In this document: piece after piece, positions 18,921-64,000 of the stretch
Position numbering within the stretch: position 1 is the first letter of the stretch
How the letters are laid out: each line of letters begins with the position of its first letter
Assembly: GCA_964016885.1 (NCBI GenBank)
Contig: OZ024745.1
Location: 24,862,001-24,926,000 of the forward strand
Length of the DNA: 64,000 nucleotides
Direction: 5' to 3'
DNA from: Eledone cirrhosa
Lineage: Eukaryota
The notes under the pieces: model-generated
Databases searched by the model: none
Seen by the model: only the letters and a program-made list of their open reading frames with translations
Told to the model about the DNA's origin: nothing
Made by a program: the position numbers and the translations under genes

Positions 18921-18957
<37 letters not shown>

Positions 18958-19258
18958 ACTATTAATAATTATTAATGCACTCGTGCAATGCCTGTGCGTG
19001 ACGAATATTTTTAAAGTGAGGAAAGACTGTGCACTGAACCAATCCCACTCTCTGAGCGACAGTAGCTATAACCCGAAAAGAAGAAAAGATCAACATCATC
19101 GGTAACTACTGAGCCGCAGGTTTTATATCGGAGTTAACCCAGTTTCCTGAGATGCCTTCTCCTAGAAGAATACCCTGACATGGGCTAGGGGTTCTTCACT
19201 CCCAGTGGTTTAACTGCGCGATCGGGCATCCAGCCCGATTATTTCTATGTCCCCGCGC
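15076..19258 (-). mobile_element. Near full-length RTE-clade LINE
   Basis: Single APE+RT ORF; 3' hairpin ctcg-ataa-cgag followed by (CAT)/(ATGT)n tail; ~380-bp 5'UTR. Confidence 0.93.
15328..18873 (-). CDS. RTE ORF: APE endonuclease + reverse transcriptase + three C-terminal C2H2-like zinc fingers (1181 aa)
   Basis: APE motifs WNVRTL, LSETRL, YAPT, GDFNAR, LLDYV, TDH; RT motifs NYRGISLL, QSGFR, FVDLTKAFD, GVKQG, YADD, YLGS, RLRWSGH; no stops. Confidence 0.96.
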   Translation of the reverse strand: MMFQNNVNEIIANLGSGTKKIIGNKGRGPKLSQPGPARHRAIVIEPNRAFSLGCWNVRTLLDRDSLERPERRTALVAKELRRYDLDIVALSETRLAGDGHLTEFCGEYTFFWKGRDEGTRREAGVGFAVKTVLVNKLEEFPVGISERLMSMRVPLDKGRYATLVSVYAPTMNSVDEEKLSFYHALKGVLRNIPQADKVIVLGDFNARVGRDFNTWNVIGRHGVGKCNSNGMLLLQMCEELDLCVTNTMFQQKNKFKTTWMHPASKEWHLLDYVLVRMRDRQDVRCVRVLRGAECWTDHRLVRAKVNLITKRKIRAPGVTLPKRLNAARLKDKNVKRTLEEEMQAADLGEDWPTLKKSVYDVGRRVLGLVQRKHQDWFNEKDVHIDDLLADKRRALSRYLTARPQERNTLHEELRDVKSRVRRSLSQMKDQWWSEKAGEIQTASDCNNTKLLYSLLREVYGPSSSLVTPIRSKDGKELLRDSQGILRRWREHFDDLLNQPSVVSEDFLNLIPESPVKVALAEPPTLVEVAVAISKLNSGRSPGMDGIHAELLQYGGERLLQHLHSLFGRIWANESVPEDWRDAVMVVLYKGKGNRNDCGNYRGISLLSVVGKVLCRVLLDRLLTHIADCVLPESQSGFRVGRGTTDMIFSARQLQEKCIEQGLDLYQVFVDLTKAFDTVNRDALWKVLQKLGCPDKFLALVRSFHDDMKAWVNVGGNMSEPISVKNGVKQGDIPAPTLFAIYFAMVFCVAFRDCEHGVYIRYRTSGSIFNIRRFAAKTKVFTSVIRDLLYADDCDLVAHTESDMQHILNVFSDACTALGLTVSLKKTVVMYQPAPGRQYTEPNIYVYGKRLGVVDQFVYLGSTVNRYGNLDSEISLRIRKASDAFGKLERRLWGRRDICRRTKVKVYRACVLSCLLYACETWVTYRRHLKQLERFHQMCLRRIHGVHWRDHISDVEILESSMCDSIEALVLKQRLRWSGHLARMKDSRIPKQLFYGELVKGKRPPHKPKKRYKDSLKASLKDANISADTWENVAADRNKWRKTVYEGKVAFEASRIAHEKVKRDVRKGIAVALPDGEGPPMFLTCSVCARLCLSKAGLESHLRSHKVRPVVDYQAAVGDATHHACQTCGRECKSAGGLKRHAKVHELQPQPTIPSKCFGCRLCARHFGSLAGLKSHIRSQHC

Positions 19259-25640: not shown

Positions 25641-25710
25641 ATTATGGTTTTATAAATATAGTTTCCATTTATTAATATATTGTATATTTATATATATATA
25701 TATATATATA

Positions 25711-26246
25711 AACAATTAAGTTAAAAATGTACATCCACATATGTATACTGAAATACTAGTATGCATATGAATACACACACGTGTACATATGTAGATGTAC
25801 CGAGTTTTTCACTGGACACTTTACTGTGAGTGTCCAGCTATTCTGTATGTAAACACACAGACAAACCGGTTTTTAGAGTCATACTGGTTTTCGAGGAAAC
25901 ACCTTTCCTCTATTCTCCAGAAAGCCAGACAAGGAATATTGGACTAGTTTCGATGTTGTTACATCTCATCAGCAATATTTACCTATCTTCCGGCCTTTCT
26001 AGAGAATCGTAAAAGCACATATCGTTATATGCTTTTTCTATGAAAATTAGTAGTGGGCAGACTAATTTGCATCGAGCGTGAGTACGTACCGGTTCAGCGG
26101 AGACGATAAAAACAAATAACGAAACGAAATTAAATTTCGTTTCGTTTGTAACTCACTTTTGTATGACTGACGCTTAAACAATTAAGTTAAAAATGTACAT
26201 CCACATATGTATACTGAAATACTAGTATGCATATGAATACACACAC

Positions 26247-26253
<7 letters not shown>
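25711..26253 (-). mobile_element. Retrozyme-like / non-autonomous PLE (family B), 466-bp monomer, ~1.16 units
   Basis: Sequence at 25711 recurs at 26177; one HHR per unit; (TA)n flanks; non-coding. Confidence 0.8.
25935..25979 (-). ncRNA. Minimal type I hammerhead ribozyme (family B), GUC cleavage triplet
   Basis: Reverse complement reads aauauug-CUGAUGA-gaugu aaca acauc-GAAA-cuag-UC-caauauu; perfect 7-bp stem I and 5-bp stem II. Confidence 0.88.
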
Positions 26254-26291
<38 letters not shown>

Positions 26292-28988: not shown

Positions 28989-29400
28989 TCTATTTATATA
29001 TATATATATATATATAAAATAGTATGTCCATAGAACCAAAAACATATGTATATATCTATGACTTTGTCTAGTTTATATGTATATACCCTTTAAATTATAT
29101 ATATATATATATACAAATATAAATATATTATACAAAGAGAAGTGTGTTACACAGTGAGATGTGTGTAAAGAACTATTACAAGTGAGTTTTACCGTTACTG
29201 TATATGTAATAATTCACTTGTAATATATTTATATTTGTATTTGAACTCAGAAGAAAATTCTCTATTCCTCTTTGAGCTAATATTATTATTATTACTGTGA
29301 ACTCCGGAATACTCTTAATTCCGATCCCCGTATATATATATATATATATATATGAAATATATGAAATATAAGAATCAAAGAACTGTTCAAAACATTATTG

Positions 29401-29447
29401 TGCTTACAGCTGTTTCCTCCAAACCGAGGTTTGGATTCTTCGGAGCA
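29401..29447 (-). ncRNA. Minimal hammerhead ribozyme variant in the inverted pseudo-LTR
   Basis: Reverse complement of 33062-33108. Confidence 0.7.
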
Positions 29448-29997
29448 ATTTATTAATGCATGGACAGTTATATGACCTCCCTTTCAGCCGAGAGACATAC
29501 CAATACAAACATTGATACATATTCAAACATTGTGGGTCAACATTCATTACAGAATTTAGAGTGGCAGTACACACTTCGAGAATTACATTTATATTAATAG
29601 GTACAATCAAAAATCAAAGATATAGGTTAAAGTACAACATGAAGATAAGTGGTTATATAGTGCAAATGTTATATGTGTGGCACGCATGTGCGTCTTGTTT
29701 ATATAGTGTGGCAGAGAGATATGTGTGGTAGAGGCACTTAGGTAGGTAAATAAGAGTGTTAGGTTGGTAGATCTGGTGGCAAAGTCTTTATATGATTGAT
29801 ATAGTCTGTGTGTGGAGAAATATTATAAGCATTAAAGATAGTGCAAGCATTAAAAGTGTTATAAGTATTGGAGATGCACAGCGCAGGGATGTCAAGTAAT
29901 TCATGTACTTCGGTATTTTCATGGTCAAGGGAGTGTATATTTCGATTATATGCCTTTCACATAATCCACGACAATCCTATTAAATAAGGCACTTATC

Positions 29998-31623
29998 ATG
30001 GCCATGACCAATAGCGACCTGACTAGAGCCCAGGTTGATGTCATCCTTGCGGCCCGTAAAACCATAATCACCTTCGAGGACCAACTATGGACACGCAAGG
30101 ATACGCACAACAACTTCGACATAACCATGGGATCTAGTGACTCGGCGCAGGTCACTGATTTGGTCGGCCTATACCTCCTCAATGAAATCCATAAAGACCT
30201 CCCTTACCTCAACGGTGGTTTGTACCGCGATGATGCACTTCTACTCATAGAATATAAAAAATTTAATATAGAAAGAACTAGAAAACAACTGCATAAGACA
30301 TTCAAAAACTTTAACCTTAGTATCACCATGGACAAAAACACTAAAAATGTTAACTTCCTAGACGCCACACTATACCTAGACTCAAAAATATATACACCCT
30401 TCCATAAGCCTAATGAGAAACTTATTTACGTAGATACCAAGTCTAATCACCCTAGATCAATATTAAACTCTATCTCTAAGGGGGTGTCCAATAGAATCTC
30501 TAGTCTGTCCTATGACGCAAACATATTTAGCAAAAACTCACAATATTACAATCAAGCATTAGCTAGCTCCGGCCATAATATAGAAATTGAGTTCCTACCT
30601 AAGAAAACACATAGCTACAACATCATCTCGCACAACATGTCCATGAGGAAATCTAATAATAGGAATAGCAACCACAAGTACACCAAAGCGGAGGGTGCCA
30701 CCGGAAGTAACCATTACCATGGAAACTACTGTGAGGCCTTAGGAGGAAGCAACACACCAAACACTAAAAGCAAAAATAGAAGAAGAAATAATACATTTTT
30801 CAACCCTCCTTTCAACCTAAATGTCTCCACCAACATACCTAGGGCTTTCTTCTCACTACTAGATAAAAACTTCCCTCTAGGACACAAGTACCACAACCTC
30901 TTAAACAAAAACACAATTAAAATCTCATACTCCACGACGCCTAACTTAGCATACCACATAGCTAGCAGCAATAATAGTAAAATTAGTTCTTACTTCCAAC
31001 AAACAAAATCGCAACGGGATGCAAACCCTCTAAATACCACTGTAGCAAGCAACAATAGCAACGGCAGTAACAATAGAAATAACACTAGTATAAGTAATAA
31101 CACCAGGGTTGTCAACCTGAACACCCAAAATCCTATATCCACCACACAGACTTCCGCATTGCATTATAACCAGCGGACTAACGCACAGAATAATTGTAAC
31201 TGTAGAACTAATAGAACCTGCCCTTTAGATAAAAAATGCCTAACCAAGGATGTCATATACTCATGCACAGTCACGACTAATAACTCTTCAGAAACCTATG
31301 TAGGCTCCACTTCTAACTGCTTCAAAATTAGATATAACTCGCACATCCACTCGTTCAAAAAGCACAGCCTAGCCAACTCCACCTCACTTTCTAGCTACAT
31401 ACACTTTCTAAAATCTAAAAATAAACCATACACACTCAAATGGGAAGTGATAGGCAGCGCGACCTCGTACAAACCACCTAATAAATTCTGTAACCTCTGT
31501 ATACTAGAGACACACAATATTATCTTCTCCAACCGTAACCTACTTAACAAAAAATCTGAGGTGTTTGCAACTTGCCAGCACCGCCTCAGACATTCCTTCC
31601 AAAACTTTAAGCCCTATATATAG
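29998..31623 (+). CDS. PLE reverse transcriptase (C-terminal part) + GIY-YIG endonuclease
   Basis: FDITMGS, LYRDD, NFLD, SNHP, CNC-x5-C-x5-C linker, VIY..YVG..R..H, CNLCILE, LLNKKSE; the frame is open a few codons upstream (LLNKAL) to the truncation point. Confidence 0.93.
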   Translation: MAMTNSDLTRAQVDVILAARKTIITFEDQLWTRKDTHNNFDITMGSSDSAQVTDLVGLYLLNEIHKDLPYLNGGLYRDDALLLIEYKKFNIERTRKQLHKTFKNFNLSITMDKNTKNVNFLDATLYLDSKIYTPFHKPNEKLIYVDTKSNHPRSILNSISKGVSNRISSLSYDANIFSKNSQYYNQALASSGHNIEIEFLPKKTHSYNIISHNMSMRKSNNRNSNHKYTKAEGATGSNHYHGNYCEALGGSNTPNTKSKNRRRNNTFFNPPFNLNVSTNIPRAFFSLLDKNFPLGHKYHNLLNKNTIKISYSTTPNLAYHIASSNNSKISSYFQQTKSQRDANPLNTTVASNNSNGSNNRNNTSISNNTRVVNLNTQNPISTTQTSALHYNQRTNAQNNCNCRTNRTCPLDKKCLTKDVIYSCTVTTNNSSETYVGSTSNCFKIRYNSHIHSFKKHSLANSTSLSSYIHFLKSKNKPYTLKWEVIGSATSYKPPNKFCNLCILETHNIIFSNRNLLNKKSEVFATCQHRLRHSFQNFKPYI

Positions 31624-33061
31624 CAATGTCGGACTGGAACCTAACACCACATCTAGCATCAAACACCAGAGACACACCCTATACTACATACCCAACACTA
31701 GCTGATCCATTATAACACAAACAACGACATCCCTCTGGAACCCTTCGCAGGGAAAATACCCATTTATACCTCTACGGCAGGTGTGACAACATCCACCCAC
31801 CTGGACGGCACTACACCGCTCTAAGGGTAATTTGAGCATGAATTGATCGGTTGGATGGTGTTGGGCAGAGGAAACACCTTCCTTAGACAGATGTAAAATG
31901 ATTTAATCGAGTAGCGCTGTTGACCAGTAGGACCAGGCTGCTGAGCGCAGTGAGTGAATGCAATGCAACTGCCGTGCGGGTTGTACGTATATGGATGATC
32001 TGACGGTCAGAGAGGGGTCGCGAGGACTGCGGATTGACCTTTGGCCTGCCTGGGGATGATTATCTTTCGACATCCAATGTAGCAAGCGATGACCCAGATC
32101 TTACCAGAGATCATTGGGTCCTGAAGCAATCCTGCAATCACCGCGCCTGGTCATATGAGCAGACTACAACCACAAAGATCATTAATTTAGAATCCTCGCT
32201 CATCATCTATAATTTCCATTTGTAGCACCTTAAGATGGGTTAATCCACCTTAATAATAATATGATCACCTTCAGCATAATTTAGTTAAACTACTCTATAG
32301 TTAGTACACTTTATGCTTTAAAAGTCTCTCTTGGAAGGTGCACCTCACCATAGAATTTAGGGTCTATATTGGGACACATTTTAATGGCTAGATATAGAAA
32401 CCCCAGAGTTACCTCCCCGCATGCATTAACTCCCCTTAGCCACACACACACTTCCGGTATTCAATGGCGTCTCTCGAAACGTAACAACCTCCTGTATCGA
32501 ACTAAAGAACACCAGACTACGATCTCTAACTGGATTGTCGTGGATTATGTGAAAGGCATATAATCGAAATATACACTCCCTTGACCATGAAAATACCGAA
32601 GTACATGAATTACTTGACATCCCTGCGCTGTGCATCTCCAATACTTATAACACTTTTAATGCTTGCACTATCTTTAATGCTTATAATATTTCTCCACACA
32701 CAGACTATATCAATCATATAAAGACTTTGCCACCAGATCTACCAACCTAACACTCTTATTTGCCTACCTAAGTGCCTCTACCACACATATCTCTCTGCCA
32801 CACTATATAAACAAGACGCACATGCGTGCCACACATATAACATTTGCACTATATAACCACTTATCTTCATGTTGTACTTTAACCTATATCTTTGATTTTT
32901 GATTGTACCTATTAATATAAATGTAATTCTCGAAGTGTGTACTGCCACTCTAAATTCTGTAATGAATGTTGACCCACAATGTTTGAATATGTATCAATGT
33001 TTGTATTGGTATGTCTCTCGGCTGAAAGGGAGGTCATATAACTGTCCATGCATTAATAAAT

Positions 33062-33108
33062 TGCTCCGAAGAATCCAAACCTCGGTTTGGAGGAAACAGC
33101 TGTAAGCA
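33062..33108 (+). ncRNA. Minimal hammerhead ribozyme variant (CCGAAGA core) in the PLE pseudo-LTR
   Basis: ugcu-CCGAAGA-a uccaaacc uc gguuugga g-GAAA-cagcug-UA-agca. Confidence 0.72.
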
Positions 33109-33309
33109 CAATAATGTTTTGAACAGTTCTTTGATTCTTATATTTCATATAACTGCTCTGTAAATCATCTGATGTTTTTACATTGAGCTACTTAACTTAC
33201 TGGTAATAAGGTAGTAATACATTACTGCCTACCACTATTTAGGGTGTGTGTAAAATACTTACAACTGCTTAAGGTTTTGTGTTTACATAACCATAAATAG
33301 TATAACTAA

Positions 33310-34521: not shown

Positions 34522-34572
<51 letters not shown>

Positions 34573-34618
34573 AAAATAACAGGAGGCTGGACTTGTGTAA
34601 ATCCTTGAAAGGTTTATT

Positions 34619-34676
34619 ATACTATGATCACTTCAATGGCCGGGTTCCGTATGAATCCGGTGATATCATCAGGTAT
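34619..34676 (-). ncRNA. Hammerhead-like motif (GAAG variant)
   Basis: Reverse complement of 36367-36424 with one substitution. Confidence 0.55.
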
Positions 34677-36366
34677 TCGAAATATAACAAAGGAATATAA
34701 CAGATAAAATCCATGAGGCTGAAAAACATAGACAAGAGGATGACCGACCAACTAGCATCTTCTACTTTAGTCGGTCGTCCTCAAGTGTTGGCTATTCTGT
34801 CTACTTATGACCATCTGGTGAGGGGACGAAAGCTTATAATGTACTACTACCTCCCCGTCAAAGAGAAAAAAGAAGAAAGAAAGAAAGAAGAAAAGTCAGC
34901 GTTAAGGTCAGGCTAGAATCAGGCTAGAAACTACCGCGAAAAATGTTTTTCTAAAGAACCTATATCTTAACAGAGGCATATAGTGGGCGTCTGTATGGTA
35001 TAATGTGTGAACAGAAATTGGAACGATAACTTATGTTTAGAGTTATAGGATGAAATCAAAAAAAATTTTTAAATTAAAATAAATGTTTAAGGTTTAGGTT
35101 GTGAGATTTAGTTAAAGAATTTATAGAGAGAGTCTTATATGAAAAAGTTTAAGTGTATTATAGAGATTCTCGATAAGTTTTCAGGGTGGGATATAGAGTA
35201 AAGATTAAGCCCTTGTTTAGCAGTCAATAACACGCAGACTCCGGCCAGCCCTTCCTAACCACGTGTCAGCCGTTCCGAGTGATATCGTCTAGCGAAAGAG
35301 ATGGAAATTAATTTTTCCGAGTACTCTAGGAATGGGTGTGTTAGCGGGAAGTCTGCCATTGCCGTTAGGCCATCGCTATACCAAACGAATACTATTAATT
35401 CACAGGGGGATTTGTTTACGTGCCAGAAGATAGTTATGATTAAGCCTAGAATTTAAAGGTACTATATGGCGGTCAAAATCGGCGGCGCGGCAGGCCCCGG
35501 GGCGAAGCAAACCGCTCCGATTAATTTCATTTACCGAAAGAAGGGGAAATTTATTTTTCCAAGCACTCAAGGGAGGCTTATGCACCAGAGCGCCAGGCGA
35601 GCAGCCGGGAAAGCCACCACATCAGTCGGATCATCGCGTGTAACCAAACGATTATTATATATTCACACCCGTAATGTGAGGTTGAAAGTGGTAAAACCCG
35701 ATGAAATGCGCAAATAGACTATATTTAAGTCCCCAGTTAGTCCGGGTTATAAGAAGTGTGGTTCTTTGGTGGGTAGGGTACAGAGAGTAATATTCTCGTG
35801 TCGTGTGCTAATGAGCACAATGATAAGTACATAATGAGAGTAAAGCGAGTGAAGCGAGTGAAAATCTAAATAAAAGGAACAATAAGCAAAAATACATAAA
35901 TAAATAAAAGCAGAATACAAAGATAAAAATACATTAATAAAGTAAAAATACATAAATAAAACGCCGTCATAGCTAGGGTGGTGATGAAGTAAAACGGAAG
36001 TATATCAGAACATATCGGAGAAATCAAAACACAGGGGAAATACAATATAGATCAAGTTGTAGTTAGATAATACATATAGATATAGAGGATGGAAGAGATG
36101 GAATGGTATCAGGTGATACCTAGTGTATGTTCGAGTCTCAGAATTCAGTGTGAGTCACGAAGGCCCTAGAGTATAGGGTAGAGAATTCAATTAATACAAT
36201 ACAGGTTACAGTATAATCCGTAGAATTTTGTCGAAGTCTGAATATTCCCGACAGGGAAGCAGCATTGCTAGATGATGCTAGAAGATGCTAGTTGGTCGGT
36301 CGTCCTCTTGTCTATGATTTTCAGCCCCATGGATTTTATCTGTTATATTCCTTTGTTATATTTCGA

Positions 36367-36424
36367 ATACCTGATGATATCACCGGATTCATACGGAACC
36401 CGGTCATTGAAGTGATCATAGTAT
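36367..36424 (+). ncRNA. Hammerhead-like motif (GAAG variant)
   Basis: auac-CUGAUGA-..accgg..ccggu..-GAAG-ugauca-UA-guau. Confidence 0.58.
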
Positions 36425-36615
36425 AATAAACCTTTCAAGGATTTACACAAGTCCAGCCTCCTGTTATTTTATTATAATAATTAACTCCGTACTCGCACCA
36501 CCAACTACACAAATGAAGGCGGGTGAGCTGCATTACGTTGAGTACTCTCCATAATATTACATCGAGGTTGACCATACGGAATGACCAATTCTATCCAGTG
36601 GTGAACCAACAAACC

Positions 36616-37689: not shown

Positions 37690-38024
37690 AAGTAGCCATA
37701 GTGGTGTCAATAACGATGATGATGATGAGGAGGATGAAAGGAGATTTGTGTGCGTGTGTAAGTGCGTGTATGTCCGTGTAGATGCGTGCGAACGCACGTA
37801 TGTGTTCGTATATTTATGTATGTGTGTGTGTGCGCGCATGTATGTGCGTGAGCATGTGAGTAAGTTTTGTATGTATGTGACAGTGTGTGTGTTTGTGTGT
37901 GTGCGTATGTGCGTGCGTGTGTGTATGCGTGTATGTGTCTATGTATATATATGTGTGTGCATAAGTATATGTGAGTACACATGTCATTGAAGTGCCTCAC
38001 CTGACGCCGGGGGCTCTACATATG

Positions 38025-38753
38025 CTTGGAGGTGCTCCCGCCCTCTCCAAGCTTGGAGGTGCTCCCGTCCTCTCCAAGCTTGGAGGTGCTCCCCTCCTCT
38101 CCAAGCTTGGAGGTGCTCCCCTCCTCTCCAAGCTTGGAGGTGCTCCCCTCCTCTCCAAGCTTGGATGTGCTACCCTCCTCTCCAAGCTTGGAGGTGCTCC
38201 CGTCCTCTCCAAGCTTGGAGGTGCTCCCGTCCTCTCCAAGCTTGGAGGTGCTCCCGTCCTCTCCAAGCTTGGAGGTGCTCCCGTCCTCTCCAAGCTTGGA
38301 TGTGCTCCCCTCCTCTCCAAGCTTGGAGGTGCTCCCGTCCTCTCCAAGCTTGGAGGTGCTCCCCTCCTCTCCAAGCTTGGATGTGCTCCCGCCCTCTCCA
38401 AGCTTGGATGTGCTCCCCTCCTCTCCAAGCTTGGAGGTGCTCCCGCCCTCTCCAAGCTTGGGTGTGCTCCCGCCCTCTCCAAGCTTGGATGTGCTCCCCT
38501 CCTCTCCAAGCTTGGGTGTGCTCCCGCCCTCTCCAAGCTTGGAGGTGCTCCCCTCTTCTCCAAGCTTGGAGGTGCTCCCCTCCTCTCCAAGCTTGGATGT
38601 GCTCCCGTCCTCTCCAAGCTTGGAGGTGCTACCCTCCTCTCCAAGCTTGGATGTTCTACCCTCCTCTCCAGGCTTGGAGGTGCTCACCTCCTCTCCAAGC
38701 TTGGATGTGCTCCCGTCCTCTCCAAGCTTGGAGGTGCTCCTCTCCTCTCCAAG
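38025..38753. repeat. 27-bp GC-rich minisatellite, ~27 copies
   Basis: Unit ctccaagcttggaggtgctcccctcct. Confidence 0.97.
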
Positions 38754-45609: not shown

Positions 45610-46640
45610 TCTTAATCATCATCATCGATTCTTTATCTATATCTCTTTATTACTTCCCTCTCTCTGTCTTTCTCTCTCTCTCTCACACATACACACACAC
45701 ACTCGCTCTCTCTCTCTCTCACACACACATACACACGCAGATACACACACACTCTGTCACACTCTCTCTCACACACACACACATACACACACACATACAC
45801 ACACACATACACACACACGCTCTCTCTCTCTCTCTCACACACACACGCATATACACACACACACTCTGTCACACTCTCACACACACACACACACACACAT
45901 ACACACACACACACGCTCTCTCTCTCTCACACACACACACTCGCTCTCTCTCTCTCTCACACACACACACACTCTCTCTCACTCTCTCTCTCTCTCTTCC
46001 TCCCTCTCTCTCTCCTTTTCTCTTTCCATGGGAGAAATCGGCAGTGTGAGTGAAATTTGGTAGACCTAGACTACCCGGAAACCCGTCCAATGGACTCTAT
46101 CTGGAATTCAAGGAGCCACCTTTGTTACACACTATCACACTGAAACTCCCTGAAAATTACATTAAGGATACACGTGTCTGTGGAATTCTGAGACACTTTC
46201 AGAAGAATGTTGTTCTGGTGATTGACGAACTGAAACACATATCGACGAAACTGACGGAGGTCCATGAATGTATGTATTCATGCATACATATGTCCGTATG
46301 TATATATGTATTTATATGTGTATGCATATATATATAAAAACAAATAACGAAACGAAATTAAATTTCGTTTCGTTTGTAACTCACTTTTGTATGACTGACG
46401 CTTAAACAATTAAGTTAAAAATTAAGTTAAAAATGTACATCCACATATGTATACTGAAATACTAGTATGCATATGAATACACACACGTATACATATGTAG
46501 ATGTACCGAGTTTTTCACTGATCACTTTACTGTGAGTGTCCAGCTATTCTGTATGTAAACACACAGACAAACCGGTTTTTAGAGTCATACTGGTTTTTGA
46601 GGAAACACCTTTCCTCTATTCTCCAGAAAGCCAGACAAGG

Positions 46641-46685
46641 AATATTGAACTAGTTTCGATGTTGTTACATCTCATCAGCAATATT
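46641..46685 (-). ncRNA. Minimal type I hammerhead ribozyme (family B), GUU triplet
   Basis: Same as 25935-25979 with UC changed to UU. Confidence 0.83.
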
Positions 46686-47089
46686 TACCTATCTTCCGGT
46701 CTCTCTAGAGAATCGTAAAAGCACATATCGTTATATGCTTTTTCTATGAAAATTAGTAGTGGGCAGACTAATTTGCATAGAGCGTGAGTACGTACCGGTT
46801 CAACGGAGACGATAAAAACAAATAACGAAACGAAATTAAATTTCGTTTCGTTTGTAACTCACTTTTGTATGACTGACGCTTAAACAATTAAGTTAAAAAT
46901 GTACATCCACATATGTATACTGAAATACTAGTATGCATATGAATACACACACGTATACATATGTAGATGTACCGAGTTTTTCACTGGTCACGCTCTATGC
47001 AAATTAGTCTGCCCACTACTAATTTTCATAGAAAAAGCATATAACGATATGTGCTTTTACGATTCTCTAGAGAGACCGGAAGATAGGTA

Positions 47090-47134
47090 AATATTGCTGA
47101 TGAGATGTAACAACATCGAAACTAGTTCAATATT
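47090..47134 (+). ncRNA. Minimal type I hammerhead ribozyme (family B), GUU triplet
   Basis: aatattg-CTGATGA(47097)-gatgtaacaacatc-GAAA-ctag-TT-caatatt. Confidence 0.83.
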
Positions 47135-47352
47135 CCTTGTCTGGCTTTCTGGAGAATAGAGGAAAGGTGTTTCCTCAAAAACCAGTATGACTCTAAAAAC
47201 CGGTTTGTCTGTGTGTTTACATACAGAATAGCTGGACACTCACAGTAAAGTGACCAGTGAAAAACTCGGTACATCTACATATGTATACGTGTGTGTATTC
47301 ATATGCATACTAGTATTTCAGTATACATATGTGGATGTACATTTTTAACTTA

Positions 47353-47387
<35 letters not shown>

Positions 47388-48465: not shown

Positions 48466-49177
48466 TGTACATATACACAAGGTTGTATAGTTGATATATG
48501 TACATATACACAAGGTTGTATAGCTAAAGTACGTACATATACACAAGGTTGTATAGCTAAAGTACGTACATATACACAAGGTTGTATAGCTAAAGTACGT
48601 ACATATACACAAGGTTGTATAGCTAAAGTACGTACATATACACAAGGTTGTATAGCTAAAGTACGTACATATACACATTTTAGGTGCACTTATTCATCTC
48701 TCATTCTTCTTTCTGTGTATTTACCATAGATGAAACATACACACACAACCTTGTGTATATGTACATATGTCAACTATACAACCTTGTGTATATGTACGTA
48801 CGTTAGCTATACAACCTTGTGTATATGTACGTACGTTAGCTATTCAACCTTGTGTATATGTACGTAAGTTAGCTCTACAACCTTGTGTATATCTACATAC
48901 TTTAGCTATACAACCTTGTGTATATGTACGTATGTCAACTATACAACCTTGTGTATATGTACGCATGTCAACTATACAACCTTGTGTATATGTACGTACC
49001 TTAACTATACAACCTTGTGTATATGTACGTACGTTAACTATACAACCTTGTGTATATGTACGTATGTCAACTATACGACCTTGTGTATATGTACGAACGT
49101 TAGCTATACAACCTTGTGTATATGTACGTATGTTAGCTATACAACCTTGTGTATATGTACGTATGTAAACTATACAA
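48466..49177. repeat. 33-bp minisatellite in two oppositely oriented blocks
   Basis: ~6 units acacaaggttgtatagctaaagtacgtacatat (48466-48676), a spacer, then ~13 reverse units (48745-49177). Confidence 0.95.
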
Positions 49178-49379
49178 TCTTTCAGTTATCCACTATAACA
49201 CTAACAATAATAAGGATTTGTTTCAATCTATTACATAACAATAATTAATGTGGATAATCAAATGGACAACCTATAAACGTGTAAGTGGCTGAATATTCTA
49301 CTAATACGTAAAGTCTCAGCGAGATTCAAATCGACACAGTATATGATCAAAACTGACCCTTTGAATTACTGTCCATCAG

Positions 49380-50122: not shown

Positions 50123-50211
<89 letters not shown>

Positions 50212-50212
<1 letters not shown>

Positions 50213-50829
50213 TATGTATACGTACATACATATATGCGTACAGACGTACAGTAGTATGTATATATATATACATACATGCACACATATATATATGTACGTA
50301 TGGGTTTACCGAACATTTATTATAATGTTCGGTTTGTTTGTAAACAAACAGCCCGAATTACGCCGTACAGTGCTCGGCAATCCTCGTCGCCTTTTTGTTC
50401 AATACTGACACAGGAACGATGTACTAGTTTCAAGCTTATTAGCTATCGTCAGCATCGTATACCTTTCTGTCAGATGATTGAACGTTTGGAAGTATATACT
50501 TTCCTTATGCATATTAACGGCTGAGGAGCCTAATTTGCATATCGAGTGAGTTAGTTCCTGTGTCAGTATTGAACAAAAGGGCGACGATGGTTGCCGAGCA
50601 CTGTACGGCTTAATTCGGGCTGTTTGTTTACAAACAAACCGAACATGATAATAAATGTTCGGTAAACCCATACGTACATATATATATGTGTGTGCATGTA
50701 TGTATATATATACATACTACCGTACGTCTGTACACATACATGTATGTACGTATACATACATACATACTTACATTTAAGTAACTGCCGTACTAAGAGTGAG
50801 AAATGAAATTTCGTTTCATTCTTTTCCAT

Positions 50830-50830
<1 letters not shown>
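50212..50830. mobile_element. Diverged sister of family B (B2) with a fold-back
   Basis: ~50215-50417 is inverted at ~50554-50757; same motif order as family B; HHR in the central part. Confidence 0.75.
50416..50458 (-). ncRNA. Minimal type I hammerhead ribozyme (family B2), GUA triplet
   Basis: Reverse complement reads acgaug-CUGACGA-uagcu aaua agcuu-GAAA-cuag-UA-caucgu. Confidence 0.85.
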
Positions 50831-52380
<1,550 letters not shown>

Positions 52381-52510: not shown

Positions 52511-55500
52511 GTATCGAGAGACACCCACAGCCATTACAGTATTGAGAGACAACTACAGCCATTACAATATTGAGAGACAACTACAGCCATTACAGTATTG
52601 AGAGACAACTACAGCCATTACAATACTGAGAGACAACTACAGCCATTACAGTATTGAGAGACAACTACAGCCATTACAATATTGAGAGACAACTACAGCC
52701 ATTACAGTATTGAGAGACAACTACAGCCATTACAATACTGAGAGACAACTACAGCCATTACAGTATTGAGAGACAACTACAGCCATTACAGTATTGAGAG
52801 ACACCCACAGCCATTACAATATAGAGAGACAACTACAGCCATTACAGTATTGAGAGACAACTACAGCCATTACAGTATTGAGAGACACCCACAGCCATTA
52901 CAATATAGAGAGACAACTACAGCCATTACAATATTGAGAGACAACTACAGCCATTACAGTATTGAGAGACAACTACAGCCATTACAGTATTGAGAGACAA
53001 CTACAGCCATTACAGTATTGAGAGACAACTACAGCCATTACAGTATTGAGAGACAACTACAGCCATTACAGTATTGAGAGACAACTACAGCCATTACAGT
53101 ATTGAGAGACAACTACAGCCATTACAGTATTGAGAGACAACTACAGCCATTACAGTATTGAGAGACACCCACAGCCATTACAATATTGAGAGACAACTAC
53201 AGCCATTACAATATTGAGAGACAACTACAGCCATTACAGTATTGAGAGACAACTACAGCCATTACAGTATTGAGAGACAACTACAGCCATTACAATACTG
53301 AGAGACAACTACAGCCATTACAGTATTGAGAGACAACTACAGCCATTACAATATAGAGAGACAACTACAGCTATTACAATACTGAGAGACAACTACAGCC
53401 ATTACAGTATTGAGAGACAACTACAGCCATTACAATATAGAGAGACAACTACAGCCATTACAATACTGAGAGACAACTACAGCCATTACAATATTGAGAG
53501 ACAACTACAGCCATTACAATATAGAGAGACAACTACAGCCATTACAGTATTGAGAGACAACTACAGCCATTACAGTATTGAGAGACACCCACAGCCATTA
53601 CAATATAGAGAGACAACTACAGCCATTACAATATTGAGAGACAACTACAGCCATTACAGTATTGAGAGACAACTACAGCCATTACAGTATTGAGAGACAA
53701 CTACAGCCATTACAGTATTGAGAGACAACTACAGCCATTACAATACTGAGAGACAACTACAGCCATTACAGTATTGAGAGACAACTACAGCCATTACAGT
53801 ATTGAGAGACAACTACAGCCATTACAATACTGAGAGACAACTACAGCCATTACAGTATTGAGAGACAACTACAGCCATTACAGTATTGAGAGACAACTAC
53901 AGCCATTACAGTATTGAGAGACAACTACAGCCATTACAATACTGAGAGACAACTACAGCCATTACAGTATTGAGAGACAACTACAGCCAGTACAGTATTG
54001 AGAGACAACTACAGCTATTACAGTATTGAGAGACAACTACAGCCATTACAATATTGAGAGACAACTACAGCCATTACAGTATTGAGAGACAACTACAGCC
54101 ATTACAGTATTGAGAGACAACTACAGCCATTACAGTATTGAGAGACAACTACAGCCATTACAATACTGAGAGACAACTACAGCCATTACAGTATTGAGAG
54201 ACAACTACAGCCATTACAGTATTGAGAGACAACTACAGCCATTACAGTATTGAGAGACAACTACAGCTATTACAGTATTGAGAGACAACTACAGCCATTA
54301 CAGTATTGAGAGACACCCACAGCCATTACAATATAGAGAGACAACTACAGCCATTACAATATTGAGAGACAACTACAGCCATTACAGTATTGAGAGACAA
54401 CTACAGCCATTACAGTATTGAGAGACAACTACAGCCATTACAGTATTGAGAGACAACTACAGCCATTACCGTATTGAGAGACACCCACAGCCATTACAGT
54501 ATTGAGAGACAACTACAGCCATTACAGTATTGAGAGACAACTACAGCCATTACCGTATTGAGAGACACCCACAGCCACTACAGTATTGAGAGACAACTAC
54601 AGCCATTACAGTATTGAGAGACAACTACAGCCATTACAGTATTGAGAGACAACTACAGCCATTACAGTATTGAGAGACAACTACAGCCATTACAGTATTG
54701 AGAGACAACTACAGCCATTACAGTATTGAGAGACAACTACAGCCATTACAGTATTGAGAGACAACTACAGCTATTACAGTATTGAGAGACAACTACAGCC
54801 ATTACAGTATTGAGAGACAACTACAGCCATTACAGTATTGAGAGACAACTACAGCCATTACAGTATTGAGAGACAACTACAGCCATTACAATATTGAGAG
54901 ACAACTACAGCCATTACAGTATTGAGAGACAACTACAGCCATTACAGTATTGAGAGACAACTACAGCCATTACAATATTGAGAGACAACTACAGCCATTA
55001 CAATATTGAGAGACAACTACAGCCATTACAATATTGAGAGACAACTACAGCCATTACAATATTGAGAGACAACTACAGCCATTACAATATTGAGAGACAA
55101 CTACAGCCATTACAATACTGAGAGACAACTACAGCCATTACAGTATTGAGAGACAACTACAGCCATTACAATACTGAGAGACAACTACAGCCATTACAGT
55201 ATTGAGAGACAACTACAGCCATTACCGTATTGAGAGACACACACAGCCATTACAGTATTGAGAGACAACTACAGCCATTACAGTATTGAGAGACAACTAC
55301 AGCCATTACCGTATTGAGAGACAACTACAGCCATTACAGTATTGAGAGACAACTACAGCCATTACAGTATTGAGAGACAACTACAGCCATTACAGTATTG
55401 AGAGACAACTACAGCCATTACAGTATTGAGAGACAACTACAGCTATTACAGTATTGAGAGACAACTACAGCCATTACAGTATAGAGGGACAACTACAGCC

Positions 55501-58500
55501 ATTACAATATTGAGAGACAACTACAGCCATTACAGTATTGAGAGACAACTACAGCCATTACAATATTGAGAGACAACTACAGCCAGTACAGTATTGAGAG
55601 ACAACTACAGCCATTACAGTATTGAGAGACAACTACAGCCATTACAGTATTGAGAGACACCCACAGCCATTACAGTATTGAGACACAACTACAGCCATTA
55701 CAGTATTGAGAGACAACTACAGCCATTACAGTATTGAGAGACAACTACAGCCATTACAATATAGAGAGACAACTACAGCCATTACAGTATTGAGAGACAA
55801 CTACAGCCATTACAGTATTGAGAGACAACTACAGCCATTACAATATTGAGAGACAACTACAGCCATTACAGTATTGAGAGACAACTACAGCCATTACAAT
55901 ATAGAGAGACAACTACAGCCATTACAGTATTGAGAGACAACTACAGCCATTACAGTATTGAGAGACAACTACAGCCATTACAATATTGAGAGACAACTAC
56001 AGCCATTACAGTATTGAGAGACAACTACAGCCATTACAGTATTGAGAGACACCCACAGCCATTACAGTATTGAGAGACAACTACAGCCATTACAGTATTG
56101 AGAGACAACTACAGCCATTACAGTATTGAGAGACACCCACAGCCATTACAGTATTGAGAGACAACTACAGCCATTACAGTATTGAGAGACAACTACAGCC
56201 ATTACAGTATTGAGAGACAACTACAGCCATTACAATATAGAGAGACAACTACAGCCATTACAGTATTGAGAGACAACTACAGCCATTACAATATAGAGAG
56301 ACAACTACAGCCATTACCGTATTGAGAGACACCCGCAGCCATTACAGTATTGAGAGACAACTACAGCCATTACAGTATGGAGAGACAACTACAGCCATTA
56401 CAGTATTGAGAGACAACTACAGCCATTACAGTATTGAGAGACAACTACAGCCATTACAGTTTTGAGAGACAACTACAGCCATTACCGTATTGAGAGACAC
56501 CCACAGCCATTACAGTATTGAGAGACAACTACAGCCATTACAGTATTGAGAGACAACTACAGCCATTACAGTATTGAGAGACAACTACAGCCATTACAGT
56601 ATTGAGAGACACCCACAGCCATTACAGTATTGAGAGACAACTACAGCCATTACAGTATTGAGAGACAACTACAGCCATTACAGTATTGAGAGACAACTAC
56701 AGCCATTACAGTATTGAGAGACAACTACAGCCATTACAATATTGAGAGACAACTACAGCCATTACAATATTGAGAGACAACTACAGCCATTACAATATTG
56801 AGAGACAACTACAGCCATTACAGTATTGAGAGACAACTACAGCCATTACAATACTGAGAGACAACTACAGCCATTACAATATTGAGAGACAACTACAGCC
56901 ATTACAATATTCAGAGACAACTACAGCCATTACAGTATTGAGAGACAACTACAGCCATTACAGTATTGAGAGACAACTACAGCCATTACAGTATTGAGAG
57001 ACAACTACAGCTATTACAGTATTGAGAGACAACTACAGCTATTACAGTATTGAGAGACAACTACAGCTATTACAGTATTGAGAGACAACTACAGCCATTA
57101 CAGTATTGAGAGACAACTACAGCCATTACAATACTGAGAGACAACTACAGCCATTACAGTATTGAGAGACAACTACAGCCATTACAGTATTGAGAGACAA
57201 CTACAGCCACTACAGTATTGAGAGACAACTACAGCCATTACAGTATTGAGAGACAACTACAGCCATTACAGTATTGAGAGACAACTACAGCCATTACAAT
57301 ACTGAGAGACAACTACAGCCATTACAATATAGAGAGACAACTACAGCCATTACAGAATTGAGAGACAACTACAGCCATTACAGTATTGAGAGACAACTAC
57401 AGCCATTACAGTATTGAGAGACAACTACAGCCATTACAATACTGAGAGACAACTACAGCCATTACAGTATTGAGAGACAACTACAGCCATTACAGTATTG
57501 AGAGACACCCACAGCCATTACAGTATTGAGAGACAACTACATCCATTACAGTATTGAGAGACACCCACAGCCATTACAGTATTGAGAGACAACTACAGCC
57601 ATTACAGTATTGAGAGACAACTACAGCCATTTCAGTATTGAGAGACAACTACAGCCATTACAATATTGAGAGACACCCACAGCCATTACAATACTGAGAG
57701 ACAACTACAGCCATTACAATATAGAGAGACAACTACATCCATTACAGTATTGAGAGACAACTACAGCCATTACAATATAGAGAGACAACTACAGCCATTA
57801 CAGTATTGAGAGACAACTACAGCCATTACAGTATTGAGAGACAACTACAGCTATTACAGTATTGAGAGACAACTACAGCCATTACAGTATTGAGAGACAA
57901 CTACAGCCATTACAGTATTGAGAGACAACTACAGCCATTACAGTATTGAGAGACAACTACAGCCATTACAGTATTGAGAGACAACTACAGCCATTACAGT
58001 ATTGAGAGACAACTACAGCCATTACAGTATTGAGAGACAACTACAGCCATTCCAGTATTGAGAGACACCCACAGCCATTACAGTATTGAGAGACAACTAC
58101 AGCCATTACAGTATTGAGAGACAACTACAGCCATTCCAGTATTGAGAGACACCCACAGCCATTACAGTATTGAGAGACAACTACAGCCATTACAGTATTG
58201 AGAGACAACTACAGCCATTACAGTATTGAGAGACAACTACAGCCATTACAGTATTGAGAGACAACTACAGCCATTCCAGTATTGAGAGACACCCACAGCC
58301 ATTACAGTATTGAGAGACAACTACAGCCATTCCAGTATTGAGAGACACCCACAGCCATTACAGTATTGAGAGACAACTACAGCCATTACAGTATTGAGAG
58401 ACAACTACAGCCATTACAGTATTGAGAGACAACTACAGCCATTACAGTATTGAGAGACAACTACAGCCATTCCAGTATTGAGAGACACCCACAGCCATTA

Positions 58501-61500
58501 CAGTATTGAGAGACAACTACAGCCATTACAGTATTGAGAGACAACTACAGCCATTACAGTATTGAGAGACAACTACAGCCATTACAGTATTGAGAGACAA
58601 CTACAGCCATTCCAGTATTGAGAGACACCCACAGCCATTACAGTATTGAGAGACAACTACAGCCATTACAGTATTGAGAGACAACTACAGCCATTCCAGT
58701 ATTGAGAGACACCCACAGCCATTACAGTATTGAGAGACAACTACAGCCATTACAGTATTGAGAGACAACTACAGCCATTACAGTATTGAGAGACAACTAC
58801 AGCCATTACAGTATTGAGAGACAACTACAGCCATTACAGTATTGAGAGACAACTACAGCCATTACAGTATTGAGAGACAACTACAGCCATTACAATATTG
58901 AGAGACAACTACAGCCATTACAATATTGAGAGACAACTACAGCCATTACAGTATTGAGAGACAACTACAGCCATTACAATACTGAGAGACAACTACAGCC
59001 ATTACAGTATTGAGAGACAACTACAGCCATTACAATATAGAGAGACAACTACAGCCATTACAATACTGAGAGACAACTACAGCCATTACAATATAGAGAG
59101 ACAACTACAGCCATTACAATACTGAGAGTCAACTACAGACATTACAATATAGAGAGACAACTACAGCCATTACAATACTGAGAGACAACTACAGCCATTA
59201 CAATATAGAGAGACAACTACAGCCATTACAATACTGAGAGACAACTACAGCCATTACAATATTGAGAGACAACTACAGCCATTACAGTATTGAGAGACAA
59301 CTACAGCCATTACAATATAGAGAGACAACTACAGCCATTACAATATAGAGAGACAACTACAGCCATTACAGTATTGAGAGACAACTACAGCCATTACAGT
59401 ATTGAGAGACAACTACAGCCATTACAGTATTGAGAGACAACTACAGCCATTACAGTATTGAGAGACAACTACAGCCATTACAGTATTGAGAGACAACTAC
59501 AGCCATTACAGTATTGAGAGACAACTACAGCCATTACAGTATTGAGAGACACCCACAGCCATTACAGTATTGAGAGACATCTACAGCCATTACAATACTG
59601 AGAGACAACTACAGCCATTACAATATTGAGAGACAACTACAGCCATTACAATATAGAGAGACAACTACAGCCATTACAGTATTGAGAGACAACTACAGCC
59701 ATTACAGTATTGAGAGACAACTACAGCCATTACAGTATTGAGAGACAACTACAGCCATTACAGTATTGAGAGACAACTACAGCCATTACAGTATTGAGAG
59801 ACAACTACAGCCATTACAGTATTGAGAGACAACTACAGCCATTCCAGTATTGAGAGACACCCACAGCCATTACAGTATTGAGAGACAACTACAGCCATTA
59901 CAGTATTGAGAGACAACTACAGCCATTCCAGTATTGAGAGACACCCACAGCCATTACAGTATTGAGAGACAACTACAGCCATTACAGTATTGAGAGACAA
60001 CTACAGCCATTACAGTATTGAGAGACAACTACAGCCATTACAGTATTGAGAGACAACTACAGCCATTACAGTATTGAGAGACAACTACAGCCATTACAGT
60101 ATTGAGAGACAACTACAGCCATTCCAGTATTGAGAGACACCCACAGCCATTACAGTATTGAGAGACAACTACAGCCATTACAGTATTGAGAGACAACTAC
60201 AGCCATTACAGTATTGAGAGACAACTACAGCCATTACAGTATTGAGAGACAACTACAGCCATTCCAGTATTGAGAGACACCCACAGCCATTACAGTATTG
60301 AGAGACAACTACAGCCATTACAGTATTGAGAGACAACTACAGCCATTACAGTATTGAGAGACAACTACAGCCATTACAGTATTGAGAGACAACTACAGCC
60401 ATTCCAGTATTGAGAGACACCCACAGCCATTACAGTATTGAGAGACAACTACAGCCATTACAGTATTGAGAGACAACTACAGCCATTCCAGTATTGAGAG
60501 ACACCCACAGCCATTACAGTATTGAGAGACAACTACAGCCATTACAGTATTGAGAGACAACTACAGCCATTACAGTATTGAGAGACAACTACAGCCATTA
60601 CAGTATTGAGAGACAACTACAGCCATTACAGTATTGAGAGACAACTACAGCCATTACAGTATTGAGAGACAACTACAGCCATTACAATATTGAGAGACAA
60701 CTACAGCCATTACAATATTGAGAGACAACTACAGCCATTACAGTATTGAGAGACAACTACAGCCATTACAATACTGAGAGACAACTACAGCCATTACAGT
60801 ATTGAGAGACAACTACAGCCATTACAATATAGAGAGACAACTACAGCTATTACAGTATTGAGAGACAACTACAGCCATTACAGTATTGAGAGACAACTAC
60901 AGCCATTACAATATAGAGAGACAACTACAGCCATTACAATATTGAGAGACAACTACAGCCATTACAATATTGAGAGACAACTACAGCCATTACAATACTG
61001 AGAGACAACTACAGCCATTACAATATAGAGAGACAACTACAGCCATTACAATACTGAGAGTCAACTACAGACATTACAATATAGAGAGACAACTACAGCC
61101 ATTACAATACTGAGAGACAACTACAGCCATTACAATATAGAGAGACAACTACAGCCATTACAATACTGAGAGACAACTACAGCCATTACAATATTGAGAG
61201 ACAACTACAGCCATTACAGTATTGAGAGACAACTACAGCCATTACAATATAGAGAGACAACTACAGCCATTACAATATAGAGAGACAACTACAGCCATTA
61301 CAGTATTGAGAGACAACTACAGCCATTACAGTATTGAGAGACAACTACAGCCATTACAGTATTGAGAGACAACTACAGCCATTACAGTATTGAGAGACAA
61401 CTACAGCCATTACAGTATTGAGAGACAACTACAGCCATTACAGTATTGAGAGACAACTACAGCCATTACAGTATTGAGAGACACCCACAGCCATTACAGT

Positions 61501-64000
61501 ATTGAGAGACATCTACAGCCATTACAATACTGAGAGACAACTACAGCCATTACAATATTGAGAGACAACTACAGCCATTACAGTATTGAGAGACAACTAC
61601 AGCCATTACAATATTGAGAGACAACTACAGCCATTACAATATAGAGAGACAACTACAGCCATTACAATATTGAGAGACAACTACAGCCATTACAATATAG
61701 AGAGACAACTACAGCCATTACAGTATTGAGAGACAACTACAGCCATTACAGTATTGAGAGACAACTACAGCCATTACAGTATTGAGAGACAACTACAGCC
61801 ATTACAATATAGAGAGACAACTACAGCCATTACAGTATTGAGAGACAACTACAGCCATTACAATACTGAGAGACAACTACAGCCATTACAGTATTGAGAG
61901 ACAACTACAGCCATTACAGTATTGAGAGACAACTACAGCCATTACAGTATTGAGAGACAACTACAGCCATTACAGTATTGAGAGACAACTACAGCCATTA
62001 CAGTATTGAGAGACAACTACAGCCATTACAGTATTGAGAGACACCCACAGCCATTACAGTATTGAGAGACAACTACAGCCATTACAGTATTGAGAGACAA
62101 CTATAGCCATTACAGTATTGAGAGACAACTACAGCCATTACAATATTGAGAGACAACTACAGCCATTACAATACTGAGAGACAACTACAGCCATTACAGT
62201 ATTGAGAGACAACTACAGCCATTACAGTATTGAGAGACAACTACAGCCATTACAGTATTGAGAGACAACTACAGCCATTACAATATTGAGAGACAACTAC
62301 AGCCATTACAGTATTGAGAGACAACTACAGCCATTACAATATTGAGAGACAACTACAGCCATTACAGTATTGAGAGACACCCACAGCCATTACAGTATTG
62401 AGAGACAACTACAGCCATTACAATACTGAGAGACAACTACAGCCATTACAGTATTGAGAGACAACTACAGCCATTACAGTATTGAGAGACAACTACAGCC
62501 ATTACAATATTGAGAGACAACTACAGCCATTACAGTATTGAGAGACAACTACAGCCATTACAATACTGAGTGACAACTACAGCCATTACAGTATTGAGAG
62601 ACAACTACAGCCATTACAGTATTGAGAGACAACTACAGCCATTACAGTATTGAGAGACACCCACAGCCATTACAGTATTGAGAGACAACTACAGCCATTA
62701 CAGTATTGAGAGACAACTACAGCCAGTACAGTATTGAGAGACAACTACAGCCATTACAGTATTGAGAGACAACTACAGCCATTACAATATTGAGAGACAA
62801 CTACAGCTATTACAGTATTGAGAGACAACTACAGCCATTACAGTATTGAGAGACAACTACAGCCATTACAATATTGAGAGACAACTACAGCCATTACAGT
62901 TTTGAGAGACAACTACAGCCATTACAGTATTGAGAGACACCCACAGCCATTACAGTATTGAGAGACAACTACAGCCATTACAGTATTGAGAGACACCCAC
63001 AGCCATTACAGTATTGAGAGACAACTACAGCCATTACAATATTGAGAGACAACTACAGCCATTACAGTATTGAGAGACAACCACAGCCATTACAGTATTG
63101 AGAGACAACTACAGCCATTACAATATTGAGAGACAACTACAGCCATTACAGTATTGAGAGACACCCACAGCCATTACAGTATTGAGAGACAACTACAGCC
63201 ATTACAATACTGAGAGACAACTACAGCCATTACAGTATTGAGAGACAACTACAGCCATTACAGTATTGAGAGACAACTACAGCCATTACAGTATTGAGAG
63301 ACAACTACAGCCATTACAATATTGAGAGACAACTACAGCCATTACAGTATTGAGAGACAACTACAGCCATTACAGTATTGAGAGACAACTACAGCCATTA
63401 CAATACTGAGAGACAACTACAGCCATTACAGTATTGAGAGACAACTACAGCCATTATAATATTGAGAGACAACTACAGCCATTACAGTATTGAGAGACAC
63501 CCACAGCCATTACAGTATTGAGAGACAACTACAGCCATTACAGTATTGAGAGACAACTACAGCTATTACAGTATTGAGAGACAACTACAGCCATTACAGT
63601 ATTGAGAGACAACTACAGCCATTACAATATAGAGAGACAACTACAGCCATTACAGTATTGAGAGACAACTACAGCCATTACAATACTGAGAGACAACTAC
63701 AGCCATTACAGTATTGAGAGACACCCACAGCCATTACAGTATTGAGAGACAACTACAGCCATTACAGTATTGAGAGACAACTACAGCCATTACAGTATTG
63801 AGAGACAACTACAGCCATTACAGTATTGAGAGACAACTACAGCCATTACAGTATTGAGAGACAACTACAGCCATTACAGTATTGAGAGACACCCACAGCC
63901 ATTACAGTATTGAGAGACAACTACAGCCATTACAGTATTGAGAGACAACTACAGCCATTACAGTATTGAGAGACAACTACAGCCATTACAGTATTGAGAG
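52511..64000. repeat. 28-bp satellite array, ~410 copies, continuing past the window end
   Basis: Unit gagagacaactacagccattacagtatt. Confidence 0.99.

Follow-up and report, generated by a model that had tools for sequence, protein, structure and literature searches.

The window, the whole stretch of 64,000 nucleotides analysed here, is animal DNA rich in microsatellites and contains, at 50210–50833, a locus of the repeat family B2, sister of a family B found elsewhere in the same window (Table 1). The B2 locus is made up of two inverted partial copies with a (TA)n run on either side. Its inverted repeat has arms of 223 nt (50195–50417 and 50554–50776) that are 91% complementary and differ from each other at eight substitutions and two 2-nt indels; it is therefore no fold-back artefact. 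Three minority alleles of family B2 (50403/50568, 50583, and 50598) are common to both arms, which suggests one insertion event from one source. A sequence-only reading of this DNA had taken the motifs to follow the order of family B along the + strand, which is not confirmed, the locus being an inverted repeat; the gaaa..aatttcgtttc hairpin that it listed is present, but it belongs to the inverted (right) arm and seems collinear with the other motifs because it is nearly palindromic. Coding potential at the B2 locus is limited to low-complexity stop-to-stop frames and GC content is 0.38–0.43, within the description of retrozymes as units without coding capacity and with GC below ~45–50%. No tRNA was found at the locus, no Rfam family matched the window at gathering level, and the window holds no snRNA gene; miRNA matches at Rfam E-value level were discarded as hairpin and TA-repeat noise.

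The family B unit has a period of 466 nt, which a 12-nt duplication at 46404–46421 raises to 478 nt in that copy. Further features of the window include a minus-strand open frame of 1245 codons (15328–19065) that is LINE-like by eye (endonuclease plus reverse transcriptase) and has three C2H2-like zinc fingers at its end, a 28-nt satellite array (52511–64000; more than 410 copies, 95% identity) that runs off the window end, a 27-nt array (38024–38753), and a 33-nt array in two facing blocks (48467–49181).

Table 1. Positions in the window of B2, family B, and Penelope-like features, with their predicted elements.
Feature	Position	Strand	Details
Family B copy, ~1.2 units between (TA)n runs	25710..26270	-	Hammerhead core 25972, triplet GUC
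5′-truncated Penelope-like element	29358-33151		552-codon frame, RT-like plus weak GIY-YIG match; 625-nt inverted repeats
Family B partial tandem, ~1.4 units, tailed 3′ end	46334..46987	-	Hammerhead core 46678, triplet GUU
Inverted 5′-truncated family B copy, tail-less 3′ end	46988..47354	+	Start 9 nt 5′ of octamer; hammerhead core 47097, triplet GUU
Left arm: partial B2 unit	50210..50554	- (RNA sense)	From 14 nt 5′ of octamer through hammerhead, hairpins, and TA-rich part to tail-less 3′ end, joined to (TA)n
Type I hammerhead of B2	50405..50473	-	Core CUGACGA 50452-50446; triplet GUA; predicted cut after 50422
TATA-like TATATA	50493..50498	-	Aligned with CATATA in B; ~42 nt 3′ of octamer's first base; inside predicted hairpin in both families
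Second, inverted near-octamer	50507..50517	+	ATGCATAT in B2, ATGAAAAT in B; family variants at 50510, 50512
Octamer ATGCAAAT	50533..50540	-	First 8 nt of 11-mer 50540-50530, identical in B and B2
Right arm: inverted partial B2 unit	50555..50833	+ (RNA sense)	From 4 nt 3′ of predicted cleavage site to terminal hairpin and tailed 3′ end, joined to (TA)n
Hairpin H1	50580..50595	+	GGCGAC/GUUGCC; B equivalent GAGGAAA/UUUCCUC
Predicted three-way junction with hairpins H3 (50621-50636) and H4 (50638-50663)	50617..50669	+	Topology alike in B; mirrored in left arm ~50303-50355
Long TA-rich hairpin	50670..50753	+	B has one at matching place; low complexity in B2, z -0.5
"Tail" of ~61 nt between the two 3′ ends	50771..50833	+	Terminal hairpin GAAAUGA/UCGUUUC (50800-50817); inferred start of reverse transcription

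By their predicted folds, the ribozyme motifs of both B and B2 are canonical type I hammerheads, each with an intact core, a 6-bp stem I, an internal loop, a 4-bp stem II, and a 6-nt loop II. In B2, a GUAU/UCC internal loop separates the distal and proximal parts of stem I; stem II has a U.U at its base, four base pairs, and the loop UAAUAA, and is followed by GAAA and by helix III, which is the palindrome ACUAGU. The replacements of stem I (acgaug/caucgu in B2, a(a)uauug/caauau(u) in B) and stem II (agcu/agcu in B2, gaugu/acauc in B) and the identical GAAA-CUAG-U that had been described earlier are all there in the sequence; the U.U mismatch had gone unnoted. Family B aligns to all 77 positions of the Rfam model Hammerhead_HH9 (RF02275, clan CL00010; 38.9 bits, E = 9.7e-9) and, since the alignment is full-length, fits the canonical type I hammerhead of that model, including its internal loop in stem I and its 6-nt loop II; the score lies below the gathering score of 52, helix III of B has shrunk to the palindrome ACUAGU, and B2 has no Rfam hammerhead match. 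A U.U at the base of helix II also occurs in the axolotl ribozyme HHR_Amex2, which cleaves better as a dimer (accessible text of PMC7229834). Three variants fall in the stem I, core, and loop II of B2 among the 40 listed of 85 variant rows, and all are tolerated (an A-U to G-U change, a change at N7, and a change of loop II to the loop of B). The cleavage triplets differ between copies (GUA in B2, GUC or GUU in B; Table 1), and the GUU triplet cleaves poorly. Two head-to-tail hammerheads were found at none of the three B/B2 loci of the window, and the pieces of public DNA are too short to hold dimers.

Other hammerhead-like motifs occur in the window. A third family, A, is present at 2098/2331, 10480, 24782, and 25430/25584, two of these loci being inverted pairs; it has a long stem II, an AT palindrome as helix III, and no octamer, and its 3′ end is weakly like that of B2 (4 of 300 shuffles, one copy). 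Additional motifs lie at 34564–36479, 28431, and 9063, of which one is in 201-nt inverted repeats (GAAG variant), one has a TGCGCATGCGC word and a TATA-like word before it, and one adjoins a GIY-YIG-like fragment at ~8600–8820.

The likeness of B and B2 was assessed block by block by comparing local alignment scores with those of 2000 dinucleotide shuffles. No shuffle reached the score of the upstream block or of the hammerhead, two reached that of the post-hammerhead hairpins, two that of the 3′ end, and 11 that of the TA-rich part; with the octamer removed, the likeness of the upstream block is weaker (29 of 2000). The alignment outside the hammerhead, a check named beforehand, is thus significant in three blocks (0, 2, and 2 of 2000). 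The motifs cited earlier as kept or replaced in this alignment can all be read in the sequence, namely the hairpin ccgaacatt/aatgttcgg of B2 in place of ctggacact/agtgtccag of B and the shared words tgtaaaca.acag and ctaatttgcat..gtgag; the terminal hairpin adds an 11-nt exact word shared by the two families.

Folded separately, B and B2 give the same series of predicted elements: stem I in extended form, stem II, and H1 come first, then the three-way junction that holds H3 and H4, then the long TA-rich hairpin, and lastly the terminal hairpin. When seven helices chosen from the folds by the analyst were compared in this one pair of families, which is not a formal covariation test, 25 of the 41 pairs were the same, 3 had changed on one side, 12 on both sides, and 1 was broken, while slid partners pair at 12–23 of 41 positions. 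The compensatory stems proposed by the sequence-only reading are borne out by these 12 two-sided changes against a single broken pair, and the comparison supports a ribozyme RNA structure conserved between B and B2. The 40 listed rows, out of 85, of B2 variants cover 38 positions, of which the 6 in the TA-rich part were left out; 8 of the remaining 32 lie in helices, which take up 136 of 338 positions (depletion not significant, Fisher p = 0.087), and 7 of these 8 keep the pair (3.8 expected).

A profile search with B and B2 found no third subfamily in the 64-kb window. The combined pattern of octamer plus hammerhead matched no locus in metagenomes (where the gap limit of the pattern left out family B), viral contigs, or prokaryote genomes; the hammerhead pattern taken by itself matched 17 metagenome and 37 viral loci. 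The viral loci, with a stem I of 0–2 bp, look like chance and were rejected, and some 10 of the 17 metagenome loci resemble genuine hammerheads from other families, to which the B/B2 profile fits essentially at the core only. One metagenome contig, L011, carries two identical type I hammerheads with cores 592 nt apart, the ACUAGU palindrome seen in B and B2, CCAAT-like words upstream, and no octamer, and is probably another retrozyme. Related contigs share a family of hammerhead-like motifs (L009 at 601–699, L001–L003, L008, and L016), which in L009 form an inverted pair with cores ~25 nt apart, in a layout like that of family A of the window. Similar repeats are known from octopus. No description of family B or B2, or of an octamer in retrozymes, was found in the literature searched, with Repbase and Dfam lying outside the search and the supplement of PMC7229834 a place where cephalopod retrozymes may be listed.

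Both inverted loci of the window (46334–47354 and 50210–50833) combine a partial copy with an inverted copy; at either locus one end is tailed and the other lacks a tail, and both are joined to (TA)n. Of the two 3′ ends, which fall at homologous places in B and B2, one lies on the 3′ side of the terminal hairpin and the second precedes it by 61 nt in B2 and by at most 70 nt in B. Penelope-like elements are marked by partial tandems, an inverted truncated copy, a one-end tail, and a bias toward microsatellites (accessible text of PMC8557442), and their tail is accounted for by reverse transcription that can start at two sites of a stem-loop (accessible text of PMC11167929). Because they join canonical type I hammerheads to a Penelope-like mode of insertion, B and B2 are probably non-LTR retrozymes, a known class whose mobilisation by Penelope elements was proposed in PMC7229834 and argued for in a preprint (10.64898/2026.07.22.740005), going by the accessible text of both. 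The earlier suggestion of a structurally conserved class of ribozyme RNAs thus holds as regards a family with shared helices, more of them than were listed, but not as regards a new class, since the family fits non-LTR retrozymes or non-autonomous Penelope-type elements. As side observations, both inversion junctions (46988 and 50554) cut the copy just 5′ of the octamer, by 9 and 14 nt or within ~5 nt of each other when aligned, which could mark the 5′ end of the RNA or a pause of the reverse transcriptase, chance also being possible at n = 2; and the right arm at 50555 starts where it would if its template were ribozyme-cut RNA, a single case absent at the B loci.

A 5′-truncated Penelope-like element is present in the window (Table 1), and its 625-nt repeats contain a hammerhead-like motif with CCGAAGA for CUGAAGA (29443 and 33066). 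The sole named relatives of its protein come from Argonauta hians (37% identity), which together with the octopus repeats suggests an octopod host; a PDB search with the open reading frame gave no match. The B/B2 core showed no likeness to the other hammerhead repeats or to the Penelope frame of the window in 21 comparisons, the lowest shuffle counts being 4 and 15 of 300 for the 3′ end of B2 against two family A copies, and no frame with reverse transcriptase plus GIY-YIG lies in or next to B or B2 in the window.

In public DNA, the segment 50395–50835 was compared at 80% likeness with 4 of 20 listed sequencing runs. Matches numbered 11,918 contigs in X1 (organism A), 4,810 in X4 (organism B), and 404 in X6 (organism C), as well as 80,027 reads in X18, none of these figures being a copy number; three organisms share B2, which is clearly abundant. 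Joints between 50552–50555 and 50833 on opposite strands recur in six contigs of X1, one of X4, and 925 reads of X18, and similar loose ends follow position 50553 in X1, X4, and X6. Other B2 copies pass the octamer and run through a link of 22–23 nt into the unit's own end, and because joints and loose ends lead back in this way the unit is closed head-to-tail, at ~440 nt (~415 nt plus the link). A further 4,184 reads of X18 pass from 50767 into (AT)n. X18 is, in our own reading, a restriction library, its read ends piling up at 50535 and 50615 and its loose ends at 50810–50812, all on AATT words; since one such word overlaps the octamer, X18 was used neither for octamer conservation nor for a third 3′ end.

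The octamer reads ATGCAAAT on the RNA strand and is found in all four hammerhead-bearing B/B2 copies. Its placement ~75–90 nt 5′ of the hammerhead, as first described, agrees with the 74 nt (B2) and 86 nt (B) that separate its last base from stem I; from its first base to C3 of the core the distances are 88 and 100 nt. An 11-bp inverted repeat, its arms separated by 11–12 nt, has the octamer as one arm and a near-octamer unnoted earlier as the other; the pairing of the two is new here. The repeat folds as a predicted hairpin (z −3.1 in B2 and −1.65 in B) with 10 of 11 pairs in both families. The octamer arm is identical at 11 of 11 positions between B and B2, against 25 of 41 in the 5′ arms of the other helices (P ~0.004, post hoc), and changes in the partner arm break pairs; this pattern leans toward recognition of the sequence. 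About 14% of the depth in X1 carries each of two changes that give B's form of the second arm, and in X4 the change that would make the second octamer perfect outnumbers the other change about twelvefold (3,058 of 38,845 vs. 254 of 37,126). An exact octamer occurs within 150 nt upstream of none of the 10 other hammerhead-like motifs of the window, one of which has a site with one mismatch, and ATGCAAAT lies upstream in none of the 17 metagenome loci, one of which has a chance-looking match in reverse form. Judged from these comparisons of sequence, the octamer is lineage-specific and confined to B and B2 among the hammerhead repeats compared. POU proteins bind ATGCAAAT and near-variants of it.

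We consider B2 to be, with good probability, an abundant non-coding repeat of ~440 nt that contains a type I hammerhead motif and is likely to be a non-LTR retrozyme which Penelope-like enzymes copy, with the paired octamer as its candidate internal promoter. A tandem copy would be transcribed, and the hammerheads would cut the transcript and release a monomer that may be circularised; since helix III is a short palindrome, cutting would probably take place as dimers. A Penelope-type protein would then nick (TA)n DNA and start reverse transcription at either side of the terminal hairpin, writing more than one unit or, as at the B2 locus, two facing partial copies. The paired octamer together with the TATA-like box ~42 nt downstream would form an RNA polymerase II promoter carried in each monomer; if the TATA-like word is in use, the start of transcription would fall close to where the extended stem I has its 5′ edge, immediately 5′ of the ribozyme. 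With the promoter inside the monomer, new copies could, as proposed, be transcribed without a host promoter. Transcription by RNA polymerase III was set aside because the copies include the upstream block, so that multimeric or circular templates would be needed; the lack of runs of at least four T between the ribozyme and the 3′ ends is at about chance level. That the octamer block acts as an internal promoter is a serious candidate explanation, held at slightly under an even chance.

That the block matters instead through its RNA hairpin, which would serve a Penelope or host protein in binding or folding, with transcription by the read-through proposed for retrozymes (accessible text of PMC7761336), is possible though doubtful. 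The fold common to both families, the placing of the variable site 50526 in the loop, the G-U pair given by the 50531 variant, and a unit made almost wholly of hairpins (z −8.2 for the B unit) all agree with such a role, yet two-sided changes, present in four of the seven other helices (12 in all), are absent from the octamer helix, and its 3′ arm switches between two mismatches, both of which read as near-octamers, against an unchanging 5′ arm. That the octamer has no present function and is ancestral sequence which two subfamilies happen to have retained we think rather unlikely. Two lineages are compared, and by estimate it is not rare for sequences of ~60% identity to share one exact word of 11 nt over a few hundred bases; ATGCAAAT also occurs four more times in 52.5 kb outside the B/B2 repeats. 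Against this, the inverted partners of those four chance octamers have 4–5 mismatches compared with 1–2 in B and B2, the word that bears the octamer is the joint-longest exact word common to the two families, the octamer itself is a perfect consensus, and no variant falls in 50533–50540, an invariance that rests on the 40 listed of 85 variant rows.

Two further explanations concern the nature of the repeat itself. If B and B2 were the terminal repeats (pLTRs) of autonomous Penelope-like elements, truncated here, the octamer would be a pLTR promoter; the repeats insert as Penelope elements do, hammerheads and promoters occur in pLTRs, and 24 of 57 Xenopus retrozyme families have homology to known repeats, which are nearly always Penelope termini (10.64898/2026.07.22.740005, accessible text). 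We judge this improbable, as B closes on itself with its 466-nt period, B2 reads that pass 50553 re-enter the unit's own end with no open reading frame, and the helices have canonical sizes rather than the long helix II of minimal Penelope motifs. That the locus is an artefact of fold-back during assembly, or else a miniature DNA transposon bounded by terminal inverted repeats, is scarcely credible and largely refuted: a 223-nt inverted repeat between TA runs does resemble such a transposon, and none of the listed public DNA pieces spans the whole stretch, but the arms differ from each other as described above, they overlap as parts of a single head-to-tail unit, and the sequence that follows is different in other copies.

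Within the preferred reading of B2 as a Penelope-mobilised retrozyme, we put forward, tentatively and as an unlikely rather than a likely outcome, a paired-octamer polymerase II promoter driven by a POU factor inside the RNA monomer of a lineage of Penelope-mobilised retrozymes of an octopod-like genome, which would make each new copy an independent transcription unit. Were this true, thousands of POU sites would be scattered through the genome, and the repeats would be convergent with newt satellite 2 and an exception to retrozymes lacking promoters. B and B2 offer a short, testable pair for asking by what means animal retrozymes are transcribed and what enzyme mobilises them. The link of retrozymes to Penelope has so far rested on co-occurrence and similarity to pLTRs, and B and B2 are units that appear to unite a canonical hammerhead with a Penelope insertion footprint; the conserved terminal hairpin between their homologous 3′ ends is a candidate binding site for the reverse transcriptase. 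The candidate promoter is compact, and its roles as DNA and as RNA are separable by simple mutations; otherwise B2 would be one more retrozyme family.

The newt satellite 2 promoter reportedly has an octamer and a PSE. This satellite, a tandem repeat that bears a hammerhead, has an snRNA-type polymerase II promoter inside its unit (Coats, Zhang and Epstein 1994, as cited in PMC2220036, accessible text) and is a precedent for the promoter proposed here. It differs from B and B2 in being an amphibian repeat of ~330 nt, whereas in B and B2 the octamer is doubled as an inverted pair, accompanied by a TATA-like box, and a candidate promoter by its sequence. Retrozymes at large seem to lack promoters and conserved motifs (accessible text of PMC7761336), and in the accessible part of the preprint 10.64898/2026.07.22.740005 no mollusc is sampled and the word "promoter" is absent. 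As far as the accessible text of PMC7229834 goes, B and B2 share with metazoan non-LTR retrozymes a non-coding, low-GC unit, a canonical type I hammerhead, a head-to-tail arrangement, and a highly paired fold, but at 440–466 nt they lie at or above the 150–450 bp described, in the window they occur as 1.2–1.4-mers and inverted pairs without dimers or arrays, and they have Penelope-type inversions, tails, and a promoter motif that are not described there. With Penelope-like elements and their non-autonomous derivatives (accessible text of PMC8557442, PMC11167929, PMC4209133, and 10.64898/2026.07.22.740005) they have in common partial tandems, an inverted 5′-truncated copy, a one-end tail, two 3′ ends that flank a stem-loop, insertion at (TA)n, and a hammerhead whose helix III is palindromic, whereas B and B2 have no open reading frame, a canonical rather than minimal hammerhead, no sequence link to a partner within the window, and a tail of 61–70 nt compared with the 30–40 nt described.
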